Part shown: positions 685-45,108 of the stretch, in pieces
Layout of the letters: each line of letters starts with the position of its first letter
How positions within the stretch are numbered: the stretch's first letter is position 1
From: a virus
Lineage: Duplodnaviria; Caudoviricetes
DNA: 64,000 nucleotides
Virus record (IMG/VR): IMGVR_UViG_3300037067_021710
Reading direction: 5' to 3' (one strand)
The notes under the pieces: generated by a model
What the model was told of the DNA's origin: nothing
The model's database searches: none
The model's input: the letters and a program-made list of their open reading frames with translations, nothing else
Position numbers and translations under genes: made by a program

Positions 685-713
685 AAAGATAAAACTCCTC
701 TTACTGGCATTAG

Positions 714-733
714 TTACTAATAATTATTAGTAA
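714..733. promoter_or_regulatory. Perfect 20-bp palindrome forming back-to-back TACTAAT (putative late promoter) sites between divergent genes
   Basis: TTACTAATAATTATTAGTAA is its own reverse complement. It lies between the minus-strand gene starting at 684 and the plus-strand array starting at 804. Confidence 0.55.
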
Positions 734-803
734 TTACGTATAATACATATATACAAAAGAGCCCAATAATTAGAAATTAAAAGTGCAATATTAGGAGTTT
801 GAC

Positions 804-1538
804 TTGAAAAGGTACTCTGAGATAACTAAAAGTGAAGAAATCTATAAATTAGCAAAATTGGATGAAGAATGCTATTGTTTAATAACTCCTACTGGAAGAT
901 TTCTTTATGAAGCAATAATAGATGTTGACCCTGAGGTAGAAACAATAATTCAAAAAGTTAAAGAAGTTAAAAATAAAATTTTCCAATGCACAAGTATAGA
1001 TAGTATTATTTCTATGCTTAATAAACTTTTAGCTTCACGAAAAATAAAATTTGGATTTACTAGAGGACTTTTAAACGAATATATAGCTTATGGCGGATTT
1101 ATTCCATCTACTCAAGAATTAACTTTTATTTTTACTTCAAAAATTCAAGACTTTATAGATAAAGATATTGACAAAAACGTAGAGTTTAAACAATTTTTAA
1201 ATTCTTTACAAAGACCATTAGGGCACGAACTAATACATAGAGAACAGTTTTTAAAGGTAGCTTATGAAGAAAAAAGAAAAGAAATATTTAAAAAAAGTTC
1301 ATCAATTAAAGATAAATATTATTCAAACAAGCATGAAATGATGAGTTATGCTTGGCAAATTATAAATGAATTTAGAATGAATGGAATAGAAGATTCAAGC
1401 ATAAAAAAGATTTTAGCTACTAAAAGTGAAGTTAAACTAGAAATAGGTGGTCCAATATTAAAAGACTACCATAAATATTTCCCTGGTCAAGAAGTTCTTA
1501 AAGGACTATACAAATATATGTATATGTACTTAGACTAA
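804..1538 (+). CDS. MKRY-leader protein with HExxH motif (putative zincin-like internal virion protein)
   Basis: TTG start after AGGAG; N-terminus MKRYSEITKSEE; GHELIHREQ followed by a downstream E (HEMMSYA). Confidence 0.55.
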   Translation: MKRYSEITKSEEIYKLAKLDEECYCLITPTGRFLYEAIIDVDPEVETIIQKVKEVKNKIFQCTSIDSIISMLNKLLASRKIKFGFTRGLLNEYIAYGGFIPSTQELTFIFTSKIQDFIDKDIDKNVEFKQFLNSLQRPLGHELIHREQFLKVAYEEKRKEIFKKSSSIKDKYYSNKHEMMSYAWQIINEFRMNGIEDSSIKKILATKSEVKLEIGGPILKDYHKYFPGQEVLKGLYKYMYMYLD

Positions 1539-1543
1539 ATATT

Positions 1544-2020
1544 ATGAAACGATATATACCCTTAACAGAAGAAATGCTTGATGGAGTAGTTCGTCCTATT
1601 TTTGACTCAAAGAAAGCTATTCAAGTATATCGAATTGAATCTCTTGCTGAAGTTAAAAAATTAGGGCCAGAACCTAGAGGGGCTATCACAATTGGCCAAT
1701 TATATATGACAAAGACTAATTCTATGGTTCTTCATATGGATATTGTAGCTTTTTTAAGAAAATTTGAAGGCCTTAATCTACAAACTAACTTAAACCCAAA
1801 AGTCTCTATTCAATCTCTCAAAGATGTCCTATATATTCAAATGTATAAAGGTAAAGCTCTATTAGCAGAATCTTATGGAGCAGAAATAAGAATTATGTTA
1901 GAAGCATGGAATAATAAGAAGCAAATGACTAAGAAACAATTATATATGAAAAAATGTATTGAAAAACATTTAGAAGTTCTTAAGCAATTAAATATACCAT
2001 TCGAATTAAGAGCAATATGA
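1544..2020 (+). CDS. MKRY-leader hypothetical protein
   Basis: N-terminus MKRYIPLTEE. Confidence 0.6.
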   Translation: MKRYIPLTEEMLDGVVRPIFDSKKAIQVYRIESLAEVKKLGPEPRGAITIGQLYMTKTNSMVLHMDIVAFLRKFEGLNLQTNLNPKVSIQSLKDVLYIQMYKGKALLAESYGAEIRIMLEAWNNKKQMTKKQLYMKKCIEKHLEVLKQLNIPFELRAI

Positions 2021-2334
2021 AGCGATATCAACAACTTAAAGAATCTTTTACTTCTGAATTATATAAAGAAATGTTAAAAGAAGTATTAAAATATCTCCCT
2101 AAAGAAGCTTTCAAAGGTATTTCTACATATAACTCAAAATTAGGTAGTCGAAATAACTTTGAAGTTACTATTCCAAAAAATAACATTTTTACTAAGGGCT
2201 TATATGTGCATGTAGGGTCTGCAGAAGACAAATATGAAGCAATGAGTAAAGCTCTTGAAAGTATAAGTAGAAGATTTGAAGAACCTGAAGAGTATGGTAC
2301 AATTGAAGATTTAATAAAGTCAGGAAGTATATGA
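2017..2334 (+). CDS. MKRY-leader hypothetical protein
   Basis: N-terminus MKRYQQLKES; ATGA overlap with the upstream gene. Confidence 0.6.
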   Translation: MKRYQQLKESFTSELYKEMLKEVLKYLPKEAFKGISTYNSKLGSRNNFEVTIPKNNIFTKGLYVHVGSAEDKYEAMSKALESISRRFEEPEEYGTIEDLIKSGSI

Positions 2335-2612
2335 TGAAACTATTTAAAGAACGATTTGCTGCTTATGCCCAAATATATGTTTATGACCTTTATTATAAAG
2401 ATAGTCTGCTATGTACATTCTATACAAAAGATTCTCTTCTAATGTTTAAACGACAATTTGAAAAAACTCCATTGTACTATTATGGCACTATAGAAGATAC
2501 TCATATGTCAGATCATCTTAGAGCTAAAAAACGAACAGCTTTTATAGAAACAGAAATTGATTTTGCTAAATTGTCAAAAATGACTAATGGAACTATTGAA
2601 ACTATAAAATGA
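2331..2612 (+). CDS. Hypothetical protein in the MKRY array (variant leader MKLFKE)
   Basis: ATGA overlaps on both sides. Confidence 0.55.
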   Translation: MMKLFKERFAAYAQIYVYDLYYKDSLLCTFYTKDSLLMFKRQFEKTPLYYYGTIEDTHMSDHLRAKKRTAFIETEIDFAKLSKMTNGTIETIK

Positions 2613-3094
2613 AACGATACAAAGAAATAAAAAAACCTGCAGAAACGAATGCTCTTAATAAACTAGAAATAATAAAGTTCTATCAAAAACTATCAACTAA
2701 GTCTATGCGGAAATTTAAAGGAGACTTTGATCGAAAAGAATTCGGAAGTCTTGATAAAATGTATATTATGCCCAGCAATGAGTTTTATGATATTGCACAA
2801 AATAACCAAACATTAGCTTTTTTTAGAGTAAGAGATTTTAGTATATATGTTAATGCTGACACAGTAAAAAATCCAGACTTTTCTGCTATTATGTTACATG
2901 AATTAGCTCATACAAGAAACTATCGATTATCAATAGAGGAGCTAATAAAAGAAATTGATGAAATGAAAGTAATTCTTGAAGAAGATAACTTTTGGGGTGG
3001 AGATGCTTATAGTCAAAAAGATAGTAGGTATGAACTACAAGAAACTCATTCTAATGTGTATGTGCGATTTAAAATGATGGGGCATACTTTATGA
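2609..3094 (+). CDS. MKRY-leader protein with HExxH motif
   Basis: MKRYKEIKKPAE; IMLHELAHTR. Confidence 0.55.
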   Translation: MKRYKEIKKPAETNALNKLEIIKFYQKLSTKSMRKFKGDFDRKEFGSLDKMYIMPSNEFYDIAQNNQTLAFFRVRDFSIYVNADTVKNPDFSAIMLHELAHTRNYRLSIEELIKEIDEMKVILEEDNFWGGDAYSQKDSRYELQETHSNVYVRFKMMGHTL

Positions 3095-3411
3095 AACGAT
3101 ATATTCCTTTAAAAGAAGATGTCCAAAAAGATAATCTTACTTTCTTTAAAAATAAAGAAGACGATAAGCTTATTAGACTTTATCCAGAAGATGGTCTTAC
3201 TGGCTTAGATAATACTCTACTTGCTACAGAGATTATAATAAAACTTTATAGTTCTTCTGAAAAAGAATTTAAAAAATTTACCTTTCCAATTCTTAAAGCA
3301 AAAATTTCTAATTATTGTATAAAATATAAGAAAAAAATTTACCCTGTATTATTTAATAAACGATATAAGTATTTATACATTGTTATTGAAAACGACTATG
3401 AAACGATATAA
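3091..3411 (+). CDS. MKRY-leader hypothetical protein
   Basis: MKRYIPLKED; ATGA overlap. Confidence 0.6.
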   Translation: MKRYIPLKEDVQKDNLTFFKNKEDDKLIRLYPEDGLTGLDNTLLATEIIIKLYSSSEKEFKKFTFPILKAKISNYCIKYKKKIYPVLFNKRYKYLYIVIENDYETI

Positions 3412-3598
3412 ATCTCTACAAGAAGAGCAAGATGATATTAAAGTAGGTGACACCCTACTTACCGGCAAGTGGAAGAATAAGAAAGTAGTAGTGGCTGGTT
3501 TTGGAACTGATAAAAATAATCAGCCAACTGTTTTAACAGATAAAGGTGAAATTCCACTTTATAAATTCAGAATTCAGAAACTTATGGTAGAAAAATGA
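3398..3598 (+). CDS. MKRY-leader small protein, possibly SH3/KOW-like
   Basis: Start revised from 3380 to ATG 3398 (MKRYKSLQEE); IKVGDTL motif. Confidence 0.6.
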   Translation: MKRYKSLQEEQDDIKVGDTLLTGKWKNKKVVVAGFGTDKNNQPTVLTDKGEIPLYKFRIQKLMVEK

Positions 3599-3954
3599 AA
3601 AGATATAAACCCTTAAACGAAAGTACTTATATACAGCCTAATAAAAAATTTAGGGGTTGGATAACTACAGAAGATAAGGTTATAGAAATTCCTAGAGGAG
3701 AAGAACATTGGGAATATATGAAGCCTTTTCGAAAGGAAAGAGATGCTCTTGATGCTGACTGGATTAGATTTTATACAATCAATGGAGATAATATTGCCCC
3801 TATAGGCTACTTAGAATTTGAAGTAAATGACTGGGATAACAAAACTTTTAGACGTGTTTACGACTTTTATATGAAACATTTAAAAGGAGATGAAAGACCA
3901 ATAACAGTAAGTTGGCATGCTAAAACTAAATATTATAAACCAAATTTTAAATAA
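3595..3954 (+). CDS. MKRY-leader hypothetical protein
   Basis: MKRYKPLNES; ATGA overlap. Confidence 0.6.
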   Translation: MKRYKPLNESTYIQPNKKFRGWITTEDKVIEIPRGEEHWEYMKPFRKERDALDADWIRFYTINGDNIAPIGYLEFEVNDWDNKTFRRVYDFYMKHLKGDERPITVSWHAKTKYYKPNFK

Positions 3955-3965
3955 AGGAGCCCTAA

Positions 3966-4769
3966 ATGCCAGAACGACCACGATTAAAAAAAGGAGATAT
4001 TACATTACGAGAAATTTTAGACCTTTCATTAAAAGTATATAAAAATGATATAGATAATAAATTAATCCGTTCCAAACTAGATGTATCCTCTGCTAAAATA
4101 GTATATCGACGGAACATGTCATTTAACCAACAAACAAAACAATGGGAACAAACTGGTAGAGAAGCTAAAATTCAATTCCTTATTAAAACAATACCTGAGT
4201 CATATGTAGACAATAGTGGTATAAGAATCCATCAATACCCTGTTACTTTCCTTTTTAAATCGTTTGAACAAGGTCTTGATAGTCCTTTTCGTAGCCGGGT
4301 CGGTAGTCTTAAAAAACCTTTGTTTGGAAAAGCTAAAAAACACTTTATTAAAGATGCTAAGGATGAAAAAGAAGCAGATAAATTTCGGCAAGAAAATGCA
4401 AGGCTTACTGAAGAAAATAAAAAGTTGGGAAAACGAAATATTCTTAATGGAATACAACTTCAATTCTTTTATGATATGGAATTCGTATGGGAAATGTATG
4501 GGTTATTATGGGGCCCGAATTATGCTAAATGGGCTCCTAAGATTAAGAACCCAGAATTAATCCCTTATTTTTCAAAACATGAAATATTTATAATACTAAA
4601 AGTACTTGAACCTTTATTCCAAAAAATGCAAGGATTTATTAAAAATAGAGTCTTCCAAAATCTTGAGAAACCAGAAACAATTTTACGACAAGCTCAACAA
4701 TTGAAAGACTCTATGCAACAAGAAGGTCAACCAATTAATCTACCTGGGGCTGGTGATTTAGGATTCTAA
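3966..4769 (+). CDS. Hypothetical protein (basic)
   Basis: 267-aa ORF with AAGGAG RBS; no motif recognised. Confidence 0.6.
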   Translation: MPERPRLKKGDITLREILDLSLKVYKNDIDNKLIRSKLDVSSAKIVYRRNMSFNQQTKQWEQTGREAKIQFLIKTIPESYVDNSGIRIHQYPVTFLFKSFEQGLDSPFRSRVGSLKKPLFGKAKKHFIKDAKDEKEADKFRQENARLTEENKKLGKRNILNGIQLQFFYDMEFVWEMYGLLWGPNYAKWAPKIKNPELIPYFSKHEIFIILKVLEPLFQKMQGFIKNRVFQNLEKPETILRQAQQLKDSMQQEGQPINLPGAGDLGF

Positions 4770-5026
4770 TTTCCTATAAAATATATAAAACTACTTATAT
4801 AATATAAAGCTAAACTGGCCAGACCCACAATTAAAAATAATAGTCCAATAGCTGTAAGTAATACAATTCCTTTCCACCACAAAATAGGGGCCCTTTTTAA
4901 TTTTTCCCATCCATAACTACTCTCAACGCAGTCATCATATAGATATTCCTTTAACATCCCTAACCCTATAGGCAAAAAGATCAGGGCTATCCAAAACCCT
5001 ATAACTCGTAAAATTCCATAATCCAC
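4766..5026 (-). CDS. Small membrane protein (2 TM)
   Basis: Two hydrophobic stretches; AGGAG RBS. Confidence 0.5.
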   Translation of the reverse strand: MDYGILRVIGFWIALIFLPIGLGMLKEYLYDDCVESSYGWEKLKRAPILWWKGIVLLTAIGLLFLIVGLASLALYYISSFIYFIGN

Positions 5027-5264
5027 AATAGTTCTCCTTAAGCTACTAATTTTGAAAATTGTTTTTTAAATGTTTGAAAATCAAGAAGTTCATACTTATC
5101 CCATACTACAAAAGCATGAGAATGAAATAGAATAGGAAGATTATTAGTCATTAAAACATTAGTTGGATATATAATTTCATCATACTTGTGATTAGTATTA
5201 AAAACACTATCAAGCAATTGTAAGTCTTTTCTGTATACATTTAAAATAATAAAGTCTTTTGTGT

Positions 5265-5591
5265 TCATTGCTTCTCCTTTGAGATACTATATACTTTAAT
5301 ATTGAGTTTATCAATTACTTCTTGGCAGTTTTTACAAGGATGAATATTCATCAACTCACCACTTTTATTTATTCTGCAAATAAAAATACTTTTAAGTTGT
5401 TTGCCATACTTTTTTATTAAAGCTATCTCGGCATGGACCCCGCCTCCTTTATGTAAAAATCGAAGTCTATTAGACGTACATCCAACAATTCTTCCCCTTT
5501 TATCAAGGCCAACAGCAGACACTCTAAATCGGCATATAGATTGTTTTGCTTTAGATTGTGCCAAGGTTATTATAGATTGTAAAGGGGCCAT
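5265..5591 (-). CDS. Small cytidine/deoxycytidylate deaminase-fold protein
   Basis: VHAE and HPCKNC zinc-binding motifs. Confidence 0.7.
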   Translation of the reverse strand: MAPLQSIITLAQSKAKQSICRFRVSAVGLDKRGRIVGCTSNRLRFLHKGGGVHAEIALIKKYGKQLKSIFICRINKSGELMNIHPCKNCQEVIDKLNIKVYSISKEKQ

Positions 5592-5593
5592 AG

Positions 5594-6220
5594 TTAATTT
5601 ATATCAGAAAATAGAGTCGGTAGTTCTTCTTTAAATTCAGCAAGTAGTGGCTTCATAACTCTACACATGTCAGGATGAGCGGCCTCAGAAGTTCGTAATT
5701 GTAATAGATGTCTCCACTCACGGACATTTGCTTTCATAACAATTTCAGTCTTTATGTCATTTGGTAAAATTCCTCGAATAGCTTGTGCTGGATATGTAGA
5801 TACTAATGTTAAATATACTTCCTCAATTTTATCCATTAGTTCAACCCATTGAATAACTGCTATAGAGTCTTCTACTGAAGCTGAGAACCAGTAGGGTTCG
5901 ATAAATGTAAGTTCACCACCAAATTTTCCTTTTGAGTAATCACAGTACCGCGTACTTTCTTGTGCAAAAGAAGCAAGTCGATGACGAACAAGTTCATGAG
6001 TAAACCCACGATTATGAATAAATTTTACTGTTATATCAGCAAACTCAATCATGGCTTCATGACCACGCTTAATAAGATTTTGAGTAAAAATTATTGCAGA
6101 AAGATCTGTAATTTTATCTTCAGATTTATAACATGTTCTTCCAGCACTTTCAATTTGTGTTAATAAAGCTTTTTCAGTTATGTCTGTTAAAATTTCATAT
6201 GAAGGTTTTATAACTCGCAT
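5594..6220 (-). CDS. thyX: Flavin-dependent thymidylate synthase
   Basis: HELVRHRLASFAQESTRY ThyX motif; GHEAMIEF; NVREWRH. Confidence 0.93.
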   Translation of the reverse strand: MRVIKPSYEILTDITEKALLTQIESAGRTCYKSEDKITDLSAIIFTQNLIKRGHEAMIEFADITVKFIHNRGFTHELVRHRLASFAQESTRYCDYSKGKFGGELTFIEPYWFSASVEDSIAVIQWVELMDKIEEVYLTLVSTYPAQAIRGILPNDIKTEIVMKANVREWRHLLQLRTSEAAHPDMCRVMKPLLAEFKEELPTLFSDIN

Positions 6221-8152: not shown

Positions 8153-8162
8153 TTACTAATAT
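8153..8162 (+). promoter_or_regulatory. Putative late promoter TACTAAT
   Basis: TTACTAATAT immediately upstream of the isolated plus-strand gene at 8177. Confidence 0.45.
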
Positions 8163-8176
8163 ATAAAGGTAATTAT

Positions 8177-9025
8177 ATGGGTGGGTTTATAAACAGTTCA
8201 GGAATACAGCTTTTAGACGAATTTGGAAATCCATATGGTCTAAAACAAGTTGATGGAAAAATTAGAGTGTCAGCTATGCCATATCTATATGATATTGCTG
8301 AAGGCAATGTAGCAAACCACACTCCATGGGCTAAAATTGGCTATAGTGTATCTACAACTGGTCAAACTACAATGTGGAATCCCGGCACTGAATATGTATG
8401 GCCTACTATTGGACAACAATTAGATGTAGTAAGTACAGATAATACAAATGATATTGCTGGAGGTGCTGGAGCTTTAACTGTCCGTATCGGATATCTTACA
8501 ATTGCAGGGCTTGAGAAAACTGAAGTAGTAACGTTAACAGGGACTACTGTTGCTCATACAGTAGCTACAGATATTTATCGAATAAATTCATTTAGAGTAG
8601 CTTCAACAGGAGCAAGTGGAAAAGCTGCTGGAACAATATCATTACAACGAATATCTCCAAATGGAGCAACTAAATTTGCTCAAATAGCTCTTGGGTACAC
8701 TAGAGCACGGGGATGTTTTTATACAGTACCAGCAGGAAAAAATTTATACATATCATCTATAGCATTTTCGGCAGGATATACTACTGCAGGTAAATATGTT
8801 AGATTTACTACTCAGGCCACATATGATAATATTACATTAACAGCGCTAACACCTGGAGTATTTTTTATGGCATATAATGAAGTAGTCTTGATTGATGGTG
8901 CATACACTAGAGCATTAGAAATACCAACAAAATTGCCTGCAGGAACTGACCTTAAAGTTTCTGTTATTGGTGAAGCTAGTATTTTTTGTACTTGTTCATT
9001 ACGAGGCTGGTTAGAAACAGCTTAA
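8177..9025 (+). CDS. Putative virion structural protein (Gly/Thr/Ala-rich, beta-rich)
   Basis: Composition unlike the surrounding early genes; opposite strand; TACTAAT upstream. Confidence 0.5.
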   Translation: MGGFINSSGIQLLDEFGNPYGLKQVDGKIRVSAMPYLYDIAEGNVANHTPWAKIGYSVSTTGQTTMWNPGTEYVWPTIGQQLDVVSTDNTNDIAGGAGALTVRIGYLTIAGLEKTEVVTLTGTTVAHTVATDIYRINSFRVASTGASGKAAGTISLQRISPNGATKFAQIALGYTRARGCFYTVPAGKNLYISSIAFSAGYTTAGKYVRFTTQATYDNITLTALTPGVFFMAYNEVVLIDGAYTRALEIPTKLPAGTDLKVSVIGEASIFCTCSLRGWLETA

Positions 9026-13261: not shown

Positions 13262-14013
13262 TTAACAAATTCCACTAATTTTCCAGCTTGCAGAGTACCA
13301 GGTACAGGAATCATTTCATTATGGTTAAAATCAATTTCCTTTATTTGATAATCTTTTTTACATTTGCTAATAAAGGCATATAAGGTAGAAGGAACAGTAT
13401 CTTTTTTAATCATAAAATGATACCCAGACTTTGTTTGTATTTTATAGTATTCAGCTTTATAATTATTAAGAAAATTGGCCAAATAAGAAATATCAAACTG
13501 CCCTGAAATATCTAAAAGTAACTCTGTAGCAAATAAGTCAATGTCAATATCAATAAAAACTTTTCTAGCTCTTGATTTCTGAATACAATTCATCAAAACC
13601 CTATTTACCCGTTTAATACCTTCAAAATTAGGGTCTTTACCACTCATATATGCAGAAGTAATAAACCCAATTTCTTTATTCATTTCATTTGTAAACATTT
13701 GATATGCTTTAATCATAGAAGAAGGATTAATATTAATATATACTACAAGGCATTTTTCAGGAACATCTTTTCCATTATTAGTCTTTCTATATTGCAAAGA
13801 AGCTCGTAATTTTCTCATAGCATAATAAAGACCTTCTTTGTCTCTTGCTATTTCCCTAGAAAACATTTCCGTTCTACCTAAAGAAAATTCTATTCTTTCT
13901 TCTGCAGTTAAATATTTGTTTCTGGCTGATAATGAGGTAAAATATACTTCATCTTTTTCAAGATCCGGTAGTATTTCTATAAATTTATCAAATTGAGTTT
14001 TATCTACTATCAT
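13258..14013 (-). CDS. Phage protein with AEP/prim-pol-like motifs
   Basis: VFIDID and TKSGYH resemble AEP motifs I and II. Confidence 0.35.
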   Translation of the reverse strand: MIVDKTQFDKFIEILPDLEKDEVYFTSLSARNKYLTAEERIEFSLGRTEMFSREIARDKEGLYYAMRKLRASLQYRKTNNGKDVPEKCLVVYININPSSMIKAYQMFTNEMNKEIGFITSAYMSGKDPNFEGIKRVNRVLMNCIQKSRARKVFIDIDIDLFATELLLDISGQFDISYLANFLNNYKAEYYKIQTKSGYHFMIKKDTVPSTLYAFISKCKKDYQIKEIDFNHNEMIPVPGTLQAGKLVEFVK

Positions 14014-16252
14014 TTTACAGGCCCTGGTATAATATTACCGCATTTAGAACAATAAAGATAAAATGTTTCATACTCTTCAGAGGCCATATTTAAATCAGAT
14101 CTTATTATTTTATTCTTTAAAATTACTGGAACATAATTATGCTTACAAACTAACATTACAACCCTCCAATAGTTTATTCAGGCCAAGGATGAAATCCACG
14201 TCTTTTATTTGCAGGAGATCCTAAAGCTGAACCGCCTCCTAGCTTTCTATGAATAGAAGGTTGTAAAGACTGAGTAAGATTTTTTATATCTTGTTCAACT
14301 TTAGCCAATCTGTCTTCTAACTCTTTAATTTTATCAGCTGTTATAATGTCCATAATTACTAATAATTCCAAAGCCTATTCGCAAACTTTATAGTATCTCT
14401 TCTAACTTTATCAGCTTTCTTCCATTGTAATAGTCTATTTACAATTTTACCAGCATATTTAGCTCGTTCCTCACATCCAAAAGCGTTACCCCACTTTTCA
14501 TATAAGCCAACATGATTATGGGTTACATAGCATTTATATAAAGGGCATTTAACTCCAACTTTATTTTTACAAATTCTAATTCCATGCCTATTAAAATTAG
14601 AAAAGATTTCGCATAAAGGACATTCAGCTTCTAAGTTTCTTATTGTAGAATATAAGTAATCAGGAAGTTCATCTTTAGTATTTATTTCAGGATGATCCCT
14701 TAAATACGTCCAGACCTTTAATGTATGATTTACAGCAGTTAGTAAAGATTGTTTTCTCATATTATTTCTCCTTAGTTACTATAACAAAATAATTATCACT
14801 ATTAAACTCATTGGGAACAACTTCATGCTTTACAGTGTACCCAGCTGTAAGAAGAATACGGCTTAATTTAGCGCGATCTTCAAAATCGTTAATAAGAAGT
14901 TTTATAACTGTAGCTTCAATTTTTAATCCATTACTTTTTGTGTTAGCTAAATAATATCCTTCAGCTTCAGTATTATCTAACCATTTAAGAGCTTCTTCAA
15001 CGATAATTTGAGCTGCAGTTCCAGAAAGCCAACTTTGATTTAAATACCGTTTAATCTGTTTTAGATCAGTAAAAAAATTAGAATTCATATCGACTTGAAC
15101 CATAAACTTAACTCCTTATTAATTTAATCTCGGGGTTCTTTTGAATATATATCTTGTAAATGTTTCGGGAAGAACCATTCTAGTTCTTGTTCAATATAAG
15201 GAAGTTTTATATCAATCGAATTTTTAACATAGTCAGTAATTAAAACACTACCGCAAAGTGAACAATAATAAGCATACCCAGTATCATCAATACCAGATAT
15301 TATCAAATTCATTAGTTTTCCACACTTACATAACATTTAAGCCTTCTTATATAGATATTATCATCCTATAGTTTAATGTGCAACTGGGATGATCTGGTAA
15401 CTTACAGAATGCCTTGTAGAAATATATATACAAATCTACACTGAAAAATAATCTATTATTCTGAGATTTGGCACCATTTATAATAGATATATACTACAAT
15501 AAGACCTACAATTACTAAAGTCCCAGCTCCAATTGTCCAATATAATATCCCAATGGGAGAATAAAGCATTAGAGTAGCAGAATTAGAAATTTTAACTATA
15601 CCTTTGCCAACAAAATACGGGGTAAAAATATATCCAAGCACTATTAAAAGGTCATAAAAAATTACTTTAAATAACGTTAATACTCTTATTTCACTTCTCC
15701 TCATTACTATCTCATAAAAGCTTGTACTTGCCGTTCTAACCATTCAACATATTCTTTAGTATAATTACCAAATTTATTTCTAGTCTTCTTTTTAGTTTTT
15801 TCAGTAAACCATTCTTCTAGATTGCTCATGCAATTTGCTCTCCAGTTTTCCATATAAATAATTTTAAGAGCTTTGACACTTTAACTCTTTCTAATTATTA
15901 TAGGATTCTCATGCGTATATCTAATAAACTTAAATGCTCTTTCTAAAGCTTTTTTAAATTGTTCAGCTTCTTGTTTAGTATTAAAAGCTTTTGCTTCTTT
16001 TTGTAAATCTGTGTGAAAATTGCCGTTTCTTCCATACCATTCCACAATAAATACAGAACCGCCTTTAAAAAGTTGATCTTCAAATTTGTTGATATGCCGG
16101 ATAAATAACATGAGATTTCTCCTTTCCTTTGCGTTTTTTATCTTTCTTTATTGTTCTTAATGCTCGCATTTGTTGAATTGAACGAAAAGTAATTTCTTCA
16201 ATATTCTTAGTTTTTACATCGTCAAATCCATGGTACTTACCAAAACCTATAA

Positions 16253-34687: not shown

Positions 34688-35044
34688 TTATAAAGTTGCT
34701 AATTTAGCATCCCGCTTTATTTTCTCCTTAGCTTGCTCTTTTGCTATTTTTTCAGCATGCTCTTTATATACTGAGTCATAAATTACTAATTCTTGGCATT
34801 TCTTTATATAATTTATGTTATCAATCATTGAAATTTTTGATATATCAGCCCAGTCTAACTTATAATTTTTACAATATTGTCGTTTTGCTTTCCTATTAAA
34901 AAGATTAGAAGCTTCTTGTATTCGATCAAAATAGGTGGGTTTTTTAAATATCGCCTCTTCTTTAGTTGAAGCTTTAGTTGAAACTTTTACAATCTTAGTA
35001 ATTTGACCAATTTGTTCCTGCATTTGAGACTCCTTAAAAATCAT
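34688..35044 (-). CDS. Hypothetical protein, last gene of the putative late operon
   Basis: ATGA overlap with 35041-35268. Confidence 0.5.
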   Translation of the reverse strand: MIFKESQMQEQIGQITKIVKVSTKASTKEEAIFKKPTYFDRIQEASNLFNRKAKRQYCKNYKLDWADISKISMIDNINYIKKCQELVIYDSVYKEHAEKIAKEQAKEKIKRDAKLATL

Positions 35045-35268
35045 TTTTTAGGAAATATAATCCATTTTTTAAGCAAAGTATCTTTATTAATTTCTATTTC
35101 TCTAGAAATTTTATCACCACCGCGGATTCCAGCACTTTGAGACAAAATAACTTTGTCATTTTTAAATCCTTTTACTTTCCAAGTAGCAAAGGTTTTTCTA
35201 CTTGCCTTAACTGTTTGGCCTATTTCAAGGTCTTGGTCAGATTCTAATAATGATTTATATTTTTTCAT
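35041..35268 (-). CDS. MKKY-leader small protein
   Basis: MKKYKSLLES matches the MKRYxxLxE leader. Confidence 0.55.
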   Translation of the reverse strand: MKKYKSLLESDQDLEIGQTVKASRKTFATWKVKGFKNDKVILSQSAGIRGGDKISREIEINKDTLLKKWIIFPKK

Positions 35269-35270
35269 TT

Positions 35271-36134
35271 TTATGACCCAGTTATAAAACTTACTGTATA
35301 ATTTGAAGCCATAGATATATTATCTACTGAAAGTATAGTAGATGAAATTGTTAATACATAATTTGTTAGAGCAGCCAACGGGGCTGAAGGAGTTATCGTT
35401 ACTATTTTATTAGTTGTATCCCATGCAAATGTTAATGTAATAGACGGAGACATAGTAATATATGAAGAAGTGTTTGCTGTATTCATTTCAGCAGCAAAAG
35501 TAATTACTAAAGGAGCATTTATAGAAACTCCTGTAGCTCCAGTAGCGGGCACAGTTGTAGAAACTGTAGTAATACCTAACGTTGAAATATAATTATCTAC
35601 ATGAGTTTGTATTTCAGTTTCTAATTTACCTCTAAAGAACGTTAACATATATGTTTTCTTTACAAGTTCTTTATTCCACAATGTACCCACAAGTTTTGGG
35701 GCAGTAAGTATAAGTGGAATTTTTCTTCCAGTATGGTCTTTAACAACATCCACTATAATATCATTTTGATCAAAATCTCTTGCAGTAGTAGAAGTAGTTC
35801 CACCAAAAGGTACTATCATTTTTATTGGCATTAGCTCAGTTAACGACATTGCTCCTACTGAATTTTCGCCAGAGCCATCAACCATTTGAAATAATTCAAC
35901 TTCATTAAATGGGTATTGAATATAAACATTATCAACTACTTCACTGCTATAAGTATTAGTTTTATCTCCCAACAAATCTCCTTGAAGATCTGCATTATAA
36001 TCTGTATTAGTTGCTATAATTCGTAGAATTTGAGTTTTTGTTCCGATAAAATTTAACTTAACATCATTAAGTTTTCGTAATATTGGAGCTAGCCCAGCTC
36101 CTATTTTATCATATACTGATTGTTTATATGCCAT
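35271..36134 (-). CDS. Virion structural protein with a C-terminal Ig-like (Big_5/SbsA-type) domain
   Basis: STTVPATGATGVSINAPLVITF...TITPSAPLAALTNYVLTI...YTVSFITG. Confidence 0.65.
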   Translation of the reverse strand: MAYKQSVYDKIGAGLAPILRKLNDVKLNFIGTKTQILRIIATNTDYNADLQGDLLGDKTNTYSSEVVDNVYIQYPFNEVELFQMVDGSGENSVGAMSLTELMPIKMIVPFGGTTSTTARDFDQNDIIVDVVKDHTGRKIPLILTAPKLVGTLWNKELVKKTYMLTFFRGKLETEIQTHVDNYISTLGITTVSTTVPATGATGVSINAPLVITFAAEMNTANTSSYITMSPSITLTFAWDTTNKIVTITPSAPLAALTNYVLTISSTILSVDNISMASNYTVSFITGS

Positions 36135-36152
36135 TCTTTTTATAGCCTCTTA

Positions 36153-37229
36153 TTAACTTCCAGTTGTAAAAGTAAAATCATAATCATCAATCATCGAAAT
36201 AAGATTAGAACTTTGCACATTTCCAGAAACTGTAACAGTATATAATGAACCCGAAAGTAAATTAGTTGTAGGAGTTAATGTAACACTAGTGCTATCAGTA
36301 TTCCAAAGAAAATCTAAAGAAATAAAAGGGTTTATATATACTTCGCTCTCAACACTGTCTTCATTCATTGTAGTATTAAAATTTATTGTAAGAGACCCAC
36401 TAATTGAATTTGCTAATGACCCAGACAATGGATTTGTTGAAACAACTTCAGGAGAGTCTGGCATTATATTTGCTCCAGTTATTCTATCTCCTGGTGCAGA
36501 GTCTTCACCATTATATTGTTCATACAACCCAATAAACATATCTATATTATCAACAGGATGAAGTCCGTCAGTTTCTAATATAATATCATTAAAAAAGACA
36601 GTTGTATCATGCTGAAGGTCCTGGATTCTACCAGTCAATAACTGCTGAGCAAACTCCCAAGCATACTGCCCTTTAGCTACTCCACTATCAAGATTTATTA
36701 TTGCTGGAAAAGTAGTAGCAACTCCATTAAGTATAATAGGAACATTAATAAGAGTCTTTTTAGAACTCATATCAACAAGAATAGAAATAGCTCGAAAGTA
36801 GTCAAATCCCCCGGAGAAAAATGAAATCATCGGCAAAACTAATTTCATTGGCCTTACTGAAATTTTACAATTAAAAGTTTCACTAGTATATAATAAAGAG
36901 TCCGCAAAATAATTGTAAGTTTCAGGTCTTAAATTATCATCATCATAATTAAATGCAGTAAACGGAAATTCTGCCCCACTAATTTGAAAAATTCTTGATG
37001 CATCTTGTAGTGCTCGTTCACGGATATCAGTGAGAATAAATCTATTTTTTCCAGATAATTGAGCTTCTTCAACTGATTTTTCTATAGGGTCAGTTTTTGT
37101 TGAAGTATACTCATAAGTAAGTTTGTCTTCATATAAAAGTTGATAATAAAAATAACGAATACTTTCCATCAAAGCAATTATAACAGGCGGATAGTTAGCA
37201 TCAGTAGTTGAAAACCAAGGAGTTGCCAT
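36153..37229 (-). CDS. Virion structural protein with a C-terminal Ig-like (Big_5/SbsA-type) domain
   Basis: PEVVSTNP...LTINFNTTMN...LTPTTNLLSGSLYTVTV...YDFTFTTG. Confidence 0.65.
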   Translation of the reverse strand: MATPWFSTTDANYPPVIIALMESIRYFYYQLLYEDKLTYEYTSTKTDPIEKSVEEAQLSGKNRFILTDIRERALQDASRIFQISGAEFPFTAFNYDDDNLRPETYNYFADSLLYTSETFNCKISVRPMKLVLPMISFFSGGFDYFRAISILVDMSSKKTLINVPIILNGVATTFPAIINLDSGVAKGQYAWEFAQQLLTGRIQDLQHDTTVFFNDIILETDGLHPVDNIDMFIGLYEQYNGEDSAPGDRITGANIMPDSPEVVSTNPLSGSLANSISGSLTINFNTTMNEDSVESEVYINPFISLDFLWNTDSTSVTLTPTTNLLSGSLYTVTVSGNVQSSNLISMIDDYDFTFTTGS

Positions 37230-37387
37230 TATTTAGACCCGATATTCACAACTTTAATGTCATTATCATCTTTATTAAGAGTCTCTTCAGGTATAGGAGC
37301 TTGCCATTTTTTCAATGGTAGCTCAGGATGAGAGCCTAGATCTGAGCTAATTGTTATTTCTTTTATAATTGGTTTATATCGTTTCAT
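37229..37387 (-). CDS. 52-aa MKRY-leader peptide (missed by the ORF track)
   Basis: MKRYKPIIKEITISSDLGSHPELPLKKWQAPIPEETLNKDDNDIKVVNIGSK; TAATG overlap with the next gene; TTACTAATAAAT directly upstream. Confidence 0.6.
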   Translation of the reverse strand: MKRYKPIIKEITISSDLGSHPELPLKKWQAPIPEETLNKDDNDIKVVNIGSK

Positions 37388-37390
37388 AAT

Positions 37391-37402
37391 ATTTATTAGT
37401 AA
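37391..37402 (-). promoter_or_regulatory. Putative late promoter TTACTAATAAAT
   Basis: Heads the structural operon 37387-34688. Confidence 0.5.
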
Positions 37403-38783: not shown

Positions 38784-38973
38784 TAATTTCTCCTATATAT
38801 CTGAACGAAACTGCTTAAACTTTTTGCGAATTAAAATTAAAAAAGCTTTTAAAATTTCTTCATCTTTAAGTTCTTTTAGAGGTAAATAAGTAGTGCCTAA
38901 AATGAATTCATAAATCTCTAAAGCTTTCTTTTCTGCAAGAGATAATTCTTTATATTTAGGCATAATTTCCTCA

Positions 38974-41985: not shown

Positions 41986-44900
41986 TTATACCTTTTCTAT
42001 ATATTTTTTAAGTTCATCATTACGAGCTTGAATAGAGGCTAATTCTATTTTCCATTCATTTGGATGGTTTTTCCAATAAGCCCATGATTTTCCAAACCCC
42101 CATATTTCTCCTAATTTAGTATCTACAGTTAACTGAACTTTATTTTCTCCTTTATTTTTATAATATGGATAAGACATCCATCTTTCTGAAATTTCTATTG
42201 CCTCTTCAATTTCAGGTATATAGAATTCACTAACTATTGAATCATGTACATTATTAAGTATACGAGACTTCATATTTTTTTTCTTAAATTCTTTTCTAAT
42301 ATTCCCCATTGCTAAAATTGTAGTTTGCCCAGAAGTTCCCTGAATCGGAGCATTTATACTTGCATTAACTTGGTTACTTAAAATAGATTTCATTTCACCA
42401 AGATATTTTTTCATGAACATATTACCAAAATGTTCTTCTAACGTTTTACAAGTTCTATAAGTGAGTCTTGGAAGGCGTCGTTTTCTACCATACATTGTAG
42501 TCACATAGCCATGAGTTCCACAAAACTTTTTGTATTCATCCATATATTGTTTATATTCTGGGTAAGCATCATAAAAAGCTTCTAATAATTGCTCAGCTAC
42601 TTTTGAATCTATTTTTAATTGTTGGCCTAATCCGAAGCCAGTACTTCCATAAAAAGCAGAAAAATTAACTGTTTTTATTTCACCCCTAAAAGATTCAAGA
42701 AGTTTTTCTTCTTGGCCTTCAATTTTTGTTTTATTATATAATCCTTCATAGGTTAAATCGCAGTCATCAAAAAAAGTATAAAGATCAAATTTATCACCAT
42801 AATGTTCATATAATTTTCTTTCACTCACAAAACGAGAACTCATCCAAGTAGCTATAGTAAATCTGTCTAGAACTTCTGCTACTTTGGCCCCAGTATAACA
42901 ATGCATATCTTTATCATTAAGAATTAAATCTTCAAGGGGGCCTTTTCCAGAAATTTGAGATCCAATTCTAATTTCCATAGCTTGATAATCTTGCTCAACT
43001 AATACAAAACCTTCAGATGGAAGAAAGATTTTTCTAAAACTAGGAGTTTTTGGCATATTTTGAAAATTAACCGTAGCATTTAACCCACCACCACCAGACA
43101 TTCTACCAGTTTTTGTTCCGTATAATTTATACCCACCATAAAGACGCCCTTTATAAATAGAGGCTACAAATCCTTTTTTACTAATCTTTATTGCTTCATC
43201 TTCGATTTCATCAGCATCTTCAATATTTAGAAATTCAGGAGTTTCTTCATCTTCTTTTTCACTAGTACTATTATTTAACTTTATACCAAATTGAGAAAGT
43301 TCTTTTGTAAGATGATTATACACGATAATTTTCTTAGCAAAATCAAGCCCAAAATCAGCATAACAATTCATTGCTTCTTTATTAACTTGAAAGGTTCCAG
43401 CTTTTGTTTTAAATTTTTGTTTTTCAGATTCAGGTAACTTCCTAAATTTAGAAAGGTCATTTAAAAAGTTAGCAACTACTTCACCTAATTGCAAATTACT
43501 TTTTAAATTAAATTCTTTATTTGCTAAGGTATAAATTTCACTTTTAAGGCCTAAAGCTTGAATTTTTAATGACTCTGCATATTCATCTAATTCTTTTTTG
43601 TCAATTTGAGTTCCAGTCATTTCAATATCAGTAATCATTTCAACTGCAGGCATCATTCGTTGGTAAAAATCTTCTTTTACACAAGAATCTTCTAAATCTA
43701 ATCTTCTCAAAAAATATGTATATAATTGATACGTTATTATAGCATCATAACAAGCATATTTAACTAAAATATCTGTAGGCATTTGAGAAAAATCAGCGAC
43801 TTTATGCTCTTTTAATTTATAGTCTTTAACCCATTGTTTTTGCTCAGCTTCATACCCACCTTCAGTTGTATAAATCCAAGCCAAAGCTTTTAAACTATTT
43901 GGACTATTTTCATTTAAAACATGAGCTGCTAACATTGTATCAAAAGTACATTTGGCTTCACTAATTCCTTTTGCTCTAAGAAATTTTAAGTCAAATTGTG
44001 CATTTTGATAAATCCAAGTAATTGCTATATTTGAGAAAAAAGAATTTAAAAGTGCTTTATCAATTTTATCAAAAGGCAAAAAATATCCAGTTATACCATC
44101 ATAAGATAAAGAAATATTATGCAAAGTATCTTCAAAATAATTAAATCCACTTGTTTCAGTGTCAATAGCAATTGCAGTAATAGATTTATTATTTATAAGC
44201 TCTTGTATAAATTTATTTGGGTCATCAATATAGGTAAATTTTAATTCTTGTTTTCTAATTGGTCTTTCATTTGTAGCTTTTATTGCTCTTATAAGCTGGT
44301 CTTTGGACCATTTCCATTCGTAATTATCAAATCCCTGAGTTTTATAAAGAGGGGCAATCGGAAATACTTTACAATTAAATTCTTTTGAATATAACCAGGA
44401 GTCATCAATCATCCAATCTTTTAAAGGATTGTTTTCGCCAAGTTCAGATTTATTAATAGGAACAAAAAAATGCCCACCAACATTTTTTTGTTTAATAGCT
44501 TCAACAATTTTAAACATTGTATTTTCAGTAATAGAATATATTGCTCTACCAGTAGTAACAATAATTTTTGGAGCAATAATATCTATAATTTCTTTTACAT
44601 TTTGTTTTTTACAAGAGACATAAGCCCCAGCAGCCTCATTAATTTTATAATCTTCACTTGCACAACCAACAGCATGAATAACACCATAAGTAAGTTTATG
44701 AACTCGAAATAAATTATCACAGTATTTATAAAAAGGCTTTGTCTTTAAATCCTTTTCTGGATGTTCTAAAAGAAGTAAAACATCAATTTTAGTTTTAGAG
44801 CAATAATTATAAATTTCTTCTGTTCCAATTAGTAACTTAACTAAATTAGCTTTTGAATTAAAAACTCTTAATTCACGAGCTCGACGCAAAGTATCTTGGC

Positions 44901-45108
44901 AGGCTTTCGCTCCTAAAGGGCACCAACATAGCCCTTCTACATAATTTTCATGGGGTTGTTTTTTTGACTTTAATGGAGCTGGAAGTTTTTGTTGGTTGAA
45001 ATTTAAAGGTTGAGAAAGTTGAGAAAGTTCTTGTACAGAACTTTTTTTAATTTTTAAAGAAGATTTTTTTACTTCTTCAGGTTTTTTTTGCTGAAATAAT
45101 TGGGTCAT
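41986..45108 (-). CDS. Family A DNA polymerase with an N-terminal UDG-like domain and 3'-5' exonuclease
   Basis: IDTET, NAQFD, YACYDA; TKTGRMS, DYQAMEIR, KTVNFSAFYG, NAPIQGTS, VHDS; N-terminal PKIIVTTGRA. Confidence 0.92.
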   Translation of the reverse strand: MTQLFQQKKPEEVKKSSLKIKKSSVQELSQLSQPLNFNQQKLPAPLKSKKQPHENYVEGLCWCPLGAKACQDTLRRARELRVFNSKANLVKLLIGTEEIYNYCSKTKIDVLLLLEHPEKDLKTKPFYKYCDNLFRVHKLTYGVIHAVGCASEDYKINEAAGAYVSCKKQNVKEIIDIIAPKIIVTTGRAIYSITENTMFKIVEAIKQKNVGGHFFVPINKSELGENNPLKDWMIDDSWLYSKEFNCKVFPIAPLYKTQGFDNYEWKWSKDQLIRAIKATNERPIRKQELKFTYIDDPNKFIQELINNKSITAIAIDTETSGFNYFEDTLHNISLSYDGITGYFLPFDKIDKALLNSFFSNIAITWIYQNAQFDLKFLRAKGISEAKCTFDTMLAAHVLNENSPNSLKALAWIYTTEGGYEAEQKQWVKDYKLKEHKVADFSQMPTDILVKYACYDAIITYQLYTYFLRRLDLEDSCVKEDFYQRMMPAVEMITDIEMTGTQIDKKELDEYAESLKIQALGLKSEIYTLANKEFNLKSNLQLGEVVANFLNDLSKFRKLPESEKQKFKTKAGTFQVNKEAMNCYADFGLDFAKKIIVYNHLTKELSQFGIKLNNSTSEKEDEETPEFLNIEDADEIEDEAIKISKKGFVASIYKGRLYGGYKLYGTKTGRMSGGGGLNATVNFQNMPKTPSFRKIFLPSEGFVLVEQDYQAMEIRIGSQISGKGPLEDLILNDKDMHCYTGAKVAEVLDRFTIATWMSSRFVSERKLYEHYGDKFDLYTFFDDCDLTYEGLYNKTKIEGQEEKLLESFRGEIKTVNFSAFYGSTGFGLGQQLKIDSKVAEQLLEAFYDAYPEYKQYMDEYKKFCGTHGYVTTMYGRKRRLPRLTYRTCKTLEEHFGNMFMKKYLGEMKSILSNQVNASINAPIQGTSGQTTILAMGNIRKEFKKKNMKSRILNNVHDSIVSEFYIPEIEEAIEISERWMSYPYYKNKGENKVQLTVDTKLGEIWGFGKSWAYWKNHPNEWKIELASIQARNDELKKYIEKV

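Follow-up and report, generated by a model that had tools for sequence, protein, structure and literature searches.

The window analysed here, a stretch of viral DNA of 64,000 nucleotides (nt) in full length (Duplodnaviria, Caudoviricetes; IMG/VR record IMGVR_UViG_3300037067_021710), carries at 804-3954 on the + strand an array of eight tightly packed genes, seven of which open with the residues M-K-R-Y, and it is this shared N-terminal leader, together with its likeness to the capsid targeting sequence of phage T4, that we describe. All seven leader-bearing genes run on the + strand (Table 1), and the probability that at least seven of eight open reading frames (ORFs) start with K-R-Y by chance, calculated from how often each residue occurs at each position in the other 116 ORFs, is about 6e-22. 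The TTG start of ORF1 is preceded by AGGAG at 793-797, six bases 5' of the codon; for ORF7, a start at TTG 3380 was discarded, and ATG 3398 is taken as the real one. Five of the seven junctions are ATGA overlaps (at 2017, 2331, 2609, 3091 and 3595), the other two being a 14-nt overlap at 3398 and a 5-nt gap before 1544. The initial annotation had described seven of eight consecutive genes with a common N-terminus, mostly coupled through ATGA and lying behind a TACTAAT site, and each of these points agrees with the ORF starts, the junctions and the presence of TACTAATAA 5' of the array. Because no internal terminator or sigma-70-type promoter stands out (a convincing terminator was not found within the array, and sigma-70-type promoters are not enriched there), the array genes and a leaderless ninth gene, ORF9, look like one translationally coupled operon.

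Genome-wide, the leader falls into two classes, namely 16 9-mers of the form M-[K]-R-Y-x-S-[LI]-x-E and 14 10-mers of the form M-K-R-Y-K-[SP]-x-L-x-E, and among these tallied leaders Tyr4 and the terminal Glu are invariant while their codons vary. The residue that follows the Glu is most often Ser (11) or Ala (6). Within the array, Tyr4 is present in 7/7 leaders and [LI]7-x-E9 in 5/7, such that the (L/I)xE element originally assigned to the leader stands for five genes at residues 7-9 and fails for ORF1 and ORF5, which have Ile7 and lack Glu9. The eighth protein, ORF4, possibly begins with a degenerate short form of the leader that contains F-x-E. Codon choice differs from one array leader to the next: Arg is encoded by CGA (five), AGG (one) or AGA (one), Lys by AAA (six) or AAG (one), and Tyr by TAT (five) or TAC (two). 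Over 30 leaders, Arg3 is CGA in 14, AGA in 10, CGT in 4, CGC in 1 and AGG in 1, a distribution that does not differ from genome usage (p = 0.10). Since the Arg3 codons vary at genome-typical frequencies, selection appears to act on the peptide, and the same conclusion, previously drawn from synonymous variation within the array, is thereby upheld.

The array does not form the stand-alone system it had been taken for; about 39 leader genes make up a genome-wide set, of which the array is the small + strand end. Counted on simple ORF calls made for this analysis, the leader is found on 36/60 ORFs of the head/late block and on 3/116 ORFs elsewhere in the window (Fisher p = 5e-18), the motif thus being far from equally common among early non-virion genes. 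Two of the three leader genes outside the head/late block bracket an island opened by TACTAATAA; this late-type island (35041-37401, minus strand) sits within the replication arm, and the Big_5 protein encoded between the two leader genes (Table 1) may be a head decoration protein. A 56-residue ORF by the replicative helicase (38793-38963, minus strand) starts M-P-K-Y-K-E-L and has L-A-E at residues 9-11; no TACTAATAA lies nearby, and the ORF may resemble the leader genes by chance or belong to their set as a stray member.

The tag of T4 is a 10-mer with Tyr4, Phe7, Ile8 and Glu10 (PMC8442874), and suppressor analysis of T4 IPIII assigns targeting mainly to residues 4 and 7 and processing to residues 8 and 10; the gp21 protease is described as specific for L/I-x-E (PMC9026906). 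Like the T4 tag, the leader is a 9-10-residue N-terminal peptide on otherwise unrelated small proteins, with Met-Lys, Tyr4, a hydrophobic residue at 7/8 and a terminal x-Glu, and in the 10-mer class the spacing is identical. The setting is also alike, comprising a gp21-family protease, a T4-type portal and a T4-type capsid protein, with tagged genes that are non-core and vary between relatives. In contrast to T4, this phage has Arg3, Lys5 and Ser/Pro6, and half of its leaders are one residue shorter. The leader is therefore better regarded as a variant of the T4 tag than as the new targeting peptide proposed in the initial annotation.

The region upstream of the window was read from a 165-kb metagenomic contig, which the window matches with 0 mismatches in 12,020 bases. 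Leftward of the array, on the opposite strand, lie genes for an SbcD-like nuclease, a tail protein and a T4-type portal (Pfam Portal_T4, 25.3 bits; cut-off 22.9), followed further leftward by a lysis-like gene, several small genes and a minus-strand run of about 30 small genes, nearly all of which begin with the same leader. Beyond this run are a gene for a 734-residue protein, a leader gene of 195 residues and a capsid protein gene of the Gp23 type (Pfam Gp23, 37.1 bits; cut-off 24.4). BLASTP of this capsid protein against T4 gp23 was too weak for placing the cleavage site, and L-N-E at residues 72-74 is an unverified cleavage candidate.

Residues 1-220 of the 734-residue protein matched only gp21 genes in tblastn, from 76 T4-type phage genomes, the best match having an E-value of 1e-6, 31% identity and 92% query coverage. 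BLASTP against T4 gp21 (2e-5) aligned T4 His85 and the Ser140 region with a His and a Ser, and the sole sequence match in the PDB was T4 gp21 (5jbl); with Pfam and PHROG profiles, both this gene and the adjoining 195-residue leader gene remained below threshold. The remaining 530 or so residues are acidic, helical and scaffold-like, with 30 [LI]-x-E sites versus 12.7 expected from shuffles (z = 5.8), compared with 16 versus 5.7 in T4 gp22, and for the control motifs [LI]-x-D and E-x-[LI] this tail shows no comparable enrichment. We interpret the gene as a gp21-family (S77) protease domain fused to a scaffold-like tail whose resemblance to gp22 is compositional only; in T4, the gp21 protease and the gp22 scaffold are separate genes, whereas here the protease domain and the scaffold-like tail share one 734-residue frame. 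Because the tail is rich in [LI]-x-E, it lends indirect support to the view that the protease keeps the L/I-x-E specificity of gp21. A copy of TACTAATAA lies inside this same gene, and a nested scaffold transcript is therefore possible.

TACTAATAA is found ahead of the genes for the capsid protein, protease and portal, ahead of the leader arrays and ahead of the 804-3954 array itself, and the motif recurs in the contigs of relatives. Non-coding DNA, 7.2% of the sequence, holds 13/16 copies (p = 6.5e-13), as against 8.9% intergenic placement for permuted 8-mers, while the total count of the 8-mer TACTAATA is not over-represented. With this placement, TACTAATAA is a candidate late promoter. At 711-736 two copies form a palindromic pair, one facing the + strand array and the other the minus-strand operon of nuclease, tail and portal genes, and we read the pair as a divergent late-promoter-like site. 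A lone + strand gene of 282 residues amid the minus-strand block (8154-9025; phrog_8198, function unknown) has TACTAATA 16 nt before its start.

The flanking nuclease had no match in IMG/VR; homologues are present on three metagenomic contigs, here called L004, L007 and L008. In L004 (25% G+C), the ORF1 counterpart shares 45% identity and the ORF2 counterpart 30% (E 6e-19), and the counterparts of ORF1, ORF2, the 195-residue gene and a DUF5661-like gene all begin with the leader, in a form that prefers Lys6 and Ile7-[YF]8. L008 is syntenic around the nuclease and portal and has eight leader genes, including counterparts of ORF5 and ORF7, with a preference for Pro6 and [YF]7-Phe8, and a further ORF5 counterpart in L007 carries a leader of the L008 type. 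Identity at leader positions 5-10 is 0.31-0.43 within a genome versus 0.22-0.24 between genomes (5 and 8 leaders sampled in the relatives). Unrelated proteins of one genome share leader preferences, and orthologues in other genomes do not; such genome-specific preferences therefore fit a signal that is read by a common partner differing per lineage. Orthologues likewise diverge more in the leader than at the start of the body, as seen in the 195-residue protein and its L004 counterpart, which share the residues that follow the Glu.

Gene content at these loci is variable. In L008 the ORF1 counterpart directly adjoins the ORF9 counterpart, with no ORF2-8 between them, and in L004 the Big_5 gene seen in the island here is situated, with its partner, between the homologues of ORF2 and of ORF1. 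ORF9 has homologues of 43-45% identity in L007 and L008, beside those of ORF1 or ORF5, and a homologue of ORF4 was not found in the relatives' loci. Amid the leader genes of L004 there are also a TnpB/Cas12f-like gene and two HNH (RRXRR) endonuclease genes (L004:1284-1913, 4771-6039 and 14011-15321); these are mobile elements and may help to rearrange the locus.

On this evidence, we assign a probability of roughly 0.6 to the reading that the N-terminus common to these proteins is a capsid targeting sequence of the T4 type, acting as a clip-off propeptide. Because the leader matches the tag that loads the T4 head, the seven leader-bearing array proteins are probably head-packaged cargo. The parallel with T4 capsid targeting, already drawn in the initial annotation, survives every in silico test to which it was put, including those on the gp21-type protease, the head module, the [LI]-x-E content of the scaffold, the leader residues, their distribution and the relatives. 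In the mechanism we propose, transcription of the operon from the TACTAATAA site would be late and would accompany that of the head genes, and the operon's products would dock on the prohead scaffolding core via Tyr4 and the hydrophobic residue at 7/8. The gp21-family protease would then cut after the Glu of [LI]-x-E or, in ORF1, more probably after L-x-E36 and before Ala. The mature bodies would be retained alongside the DNA inside the head, and at infection some of them, if not all, would exit with it. The precedent of T4 Ip1-3 makes it plausible that the cargo is delivered into the host and acts against its defences.

Several observations weigh against this assignment. ORF5 is without a canonical site in this genome, its homologues having one, and ORF1 is without one at residues 7-9. 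Across the genome the cargo has a median isoelectric point (pI) of 6.5, and 13/39 bodies are acidic (<6), unlike the uniformly basic internal proteins of T4; in addition, about 39 cargo species would need to share limited head space. Amphipathic helices could also contribute to the [LI]-x-E enrichment of the scaffold-like tail, the samples of leaders from the relatives are small, and no cultured relative was found among 50,697 phage genomes by megablast of 20 kb or by tblastn of the portal and ORF1. Finally, ORF7 matches the N-terminus of a 388-residue L008 protein (L008:11234-12400; 40% identity over 62 residues, E 4e-11) whose C-terminus matches a 209-residue protein (L003:7509-8138), the two being separate genes here. 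Not every leader match need be a tag, because the leader-like start of the 209-residue protein aligns with an internal segment of the L008 fusion.

Table 1. Genes and sites of the leader array and associated loci (aa, amino acids; coordinates refer to the window unless preceded by L003).
Feature	Coordinates	Strand	Description
Palindromic TACTAATAA pair	711-736	.	TACTAATAA at 715-723, reverse complement at 724-732 (inverted repeat I8)
ORF1	804-1538	+	244 aa, TTG start; leader M-K-R-Y-S-E-I, poorly conserved linker, HExxH body
ORF2	1544-2020	+	158 aa; canonical 9-residue leader ending L-T-E; basic body, pI 9.6
ORF3	2017-2334	+	105 aa; canonical leader ending L-K-E then Ser; ATGA-coupled to ORF2
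ORF4	2331-2612	+	93 aa; begins M-M-K-L-F-K-E; ATGA-coupled on both sides
ORF5	2609-3094	+	161 aa; leader M-K-R-Y-K-E-I; small HExxH body
ORF6	3091-3411	+	106 aa; canonical leader ending L-K-E
ORF7	3398-3598	+	66 aa; canonical leader ending L-Q-E; small basic body
ORF8	3595-3954	+	119 aa; canonical leader ending L-N-E then Ser; orphan body
ORF9	3966-4769	+	267 aa, leaderless, own AGGAG; last gene of the putative operon
Leader gene	35041-35268	-	75 aa; leader ends L-L-E then Ser; closes the late-type island
Two larger island genes	35271-37229	-	358-aa protein with Ig-like Big_5 domain; 287-aa protein
Leader gene	37229-37387	-	52 aa; TACTAATAA 7 nt before ATG; opens the late-type island
Putative protease-scaffold gene	L003:12981-15185	.	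734 aa; lies some 21-23 kb upstream of where the window starts

The bodies behind the leaders are largely orphans. With Pfam and PHROGs, the eight array proteins and ORF9 gave no match at the curated cut-off and only scattered weak ones. For ORF3, PHROGs gave a single weak match (E 0.001), whose function is unknown, and no match reached the Pfam gathering score, and ORF6 had no family match in either collection. For ORF2, family, fold and protein atlas searches provided no lead, and a homologue search returned only the query; likewise, the sole match to ORF8 among 5.8 billion clustered proteins was ORF8, the protein atlas giving no usable lead. The mature pI values of the seven leader-bearing array proteins are 8.5, 9.6, 5.9, 6.5, 9.0, 9.4 and 8.7, and five of the seven are thus basic.

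Two of the bodies carry an HExxH motif that, together with a third metal ligand, is conserved across homologues in both families, and ORF1 and ORF5 may be zinc metallopeptidases. In the ORF1 family (12 sequences), E36, H141, E142, H145 and E178 are invariant, and an equally invariant [LFM]-x-E36 is followed by Ala/Ser-Val/Ile. The ORF1 model has an overall predicted local distance difference test score (pLDDT) of 85, with 45-58 at residues 1-40 and >83 beyond, so that conservation and model alike point to a probable cleavage at L-x-E36 before Ala, which would release a 36-residue propeptide. Fold searches with this model yielded no convincing match, the best (Z 8.1) being to a helical segment of an unrelated protein. 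In the ORF5 family (6 sequences), H97, E98, H101 and E145 are invariant, and homologues in the relatives have leaders with an aromatic-x-E site. The ORF5 model (pLDDT 88) matched mainly zincins in two fold searches, weakly (Foldseek E 0.2-1, Z 4-6), with minigluzincins, IrrE/PprI, lethal-factor-like proteins, BlaR1 and Wss1 at the top. The leader regions are of low confidence in both models, that is, disordered.

An assembly tag need not lead to delivery, and the tagged proteins might instead act as accessories of the core or scaffold, to be degraded and lost from the head as it matures, or dock at the neck, tail or surface of the virion and never reach the host. We consider such a fate unlikely, if still worth weighing. 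It would suit the position of the leader genes among head and tail genes and the acidity of many cargo bodies, and the T4 core proteins gp67 and gp68 are also cleaved prohead components (PMC9026906). However, the key leader residues match the tag of those T4 proteins that are retained in the head, the folded bodies with enzyme-like motifs are unexpected of a disposable scaffold, and the variability of the loci between relatives suits accessory cargo better than structural parts.

Conservation might also reside in the DNA or its expression, the 5' ends serving as short homologies for cassette exchange or as a context for initiation and coupling, with no role for the peptide. The only repeated DNA within the array is indeed a 31-nt stretch that encodes the leader (repeat family D1; 74-90% identity, the leaders of ORF6 and ORF2 being 90% identical across it), the five ATGA overlaps force an A after the ATG, and locus content varies between relatives. 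Nevertheless, Arg3 draws its codons from two codon families, Tyr4 and the terminal Glu stay fixed over changing codons, and leaders are equally conserved on genes with ordinary Shine-Dalgarno sites and spacers. Moreover, in each relative the leaders of unrelated genes change their preferences in concert, and this points to a protein partner that they share. A purely DNA-level explanation was rejected because of the codon mix at Arg3, leaving it improbable overall, and recombination at the leader could take place alongside a function of the peptide.

The array proteins could, in principle, be fast-diverging paralogues of one ancestral gene, the N-terminus being the slowest-evolving part of a common fold. 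Tandem arrays commonly arise through duplication, ORF1 has two paralogues upstream of the window in addition to orthologues in L004 and L008, and another paralogous pair is present in the large minus-strand array. The original description of the array genes as unrelated is upheld for the array itself, where BLASTP detected no similarity among the eight bodies, and requires qualification for ORF1, which has its paralogues elsewhere, and for the HExxH motif common to ORF1 and ORF5. We do not call ORF1 and ORF5 homologues because their profiles align over the metal-binding HExxH helix only, with 6% probability, and their models differ in the order of secondary-structure elements. The bodies of the leader genes range from 42 to 238 residues, and the leader itself is a disordered segment outside any fold and diverges more between orthologues than the start of the body does, all of which makes common descent of the array proteins very improbable.

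Some families of ribosomally synthesized and post-translationally modified peptides (RiPPs) have precursors encoded in gene arrays with a conserved N-terminal leader and a hypervariable remainder. That the leader is read by a modifying enzyme of the RiPP type or by some other apparatus, for instance one for secretion or export, is hardly credible. RiPP precursors have a long leader, a short core and a maturase encoded nearby; here, the leader has only 9-10 residues and is charged rather than hydrophobic, the bodies, at 57-238 residues, are not short cores and both modelled ones (ORF1 and ORF5) fold confidently, the immediate neighbours of the array, scanned with Pfam and PHROGs, yielded no maturase family, and the leader is associated with head genes and a gp21-type protease.

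Capsid targeting, as we read it here, has counterparts in other phages. In T4, Alt and other head proteins processed by gp21 are head-carried enzymes that are trimmed at L/I-x-E and delivered with the DNA (PMC9026906). The HExxH proteins resemble these as enzyme-like cargo, whereas the Alt propeptide is not the internal-protein tag, and the array holds no Alt homologue. The giant phages phiKZ, 201phi2-1 and SPN3US have many head-internal proteins that are cut after Glu by a related prohead protease, and their paralogues sometimes share identical N-termini (PMC5694885, PMC10052503). Their motifs are of the A/S/G-x-E type, and their propeptides, often longer than 100 residues, include no common short leader, in contrast to the phage described here; in SPN3US, only 8 of about 50 head proteins are cleaved (PMC5694885, PMC10052503).

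A close analogy is with the ip loci of T-even phages, polymorphic hot spots whose products Ip1-3 are reported to be injected, each of them inhibiting a different GmrSD type IV restriction enzyme (PMC12373910). Both systems are hot-spot loci of unrelated leader-tagged genes, but the cargo found here resembles none of Ip1-3. Such genes number three in T4, and across the T-even phages they comprise at least ten types, according to the part of PMC12373910 that cites Repoila 1994. This phage, in contrast, has about 39 tagged genes in long coupled arrays. It further differs from T4 in that its cargo is not uniformly basic, and it is a very distant phage with a family A DNA polymerase and the apparent protease-scaffold fusion. 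The polymerase gene (41986-45108, minus strand) encodes a family A enzyme with a 3'-5' exonuclease domain, and its occurrence alongside T4-type head genes makes the genome a mosaic unlike classic T4-like phages.

Tag systems of this kind have been known since 1994-1996, and the T4 tag is in use for loading foreign proteins into T4 heads. What is new here is the distance from T4, the altered consensus, the number of tagged genes and the leader preferences that differ per relative; a description of leader arrays this large was not found in the literature searched. Beyond the targeting role itself, we tentatively put forward a broader idea, which we hold to be possible though doubtful, in which the T4 tag has been turned into a large, fast-turning library. 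Each genome would then encode about 39 tagged proteins, small metallopeptidases among them, that would be packed, injected and used to disarm host defences, with the tag co-evolving with the scaffold and the protease in each lineage.

If this broader idea holds, the tag would provide a sequence handle for listing the injected effectors of uncultured T4-type phages, since a search for the N-terminal motif would yield candidate injected proteins, mostly orphans, and it would also offer a portable loader for foreign cargo. The apparent shift of the leader between relatives would likewise provide a natural data set on the co-evolution of a cargo signal with its scaffold. If an uncultured lineage this distant tags dozens of its genes in the same manner, the T-even literature would greatly understate both the age of the tag and the breadth of its use.

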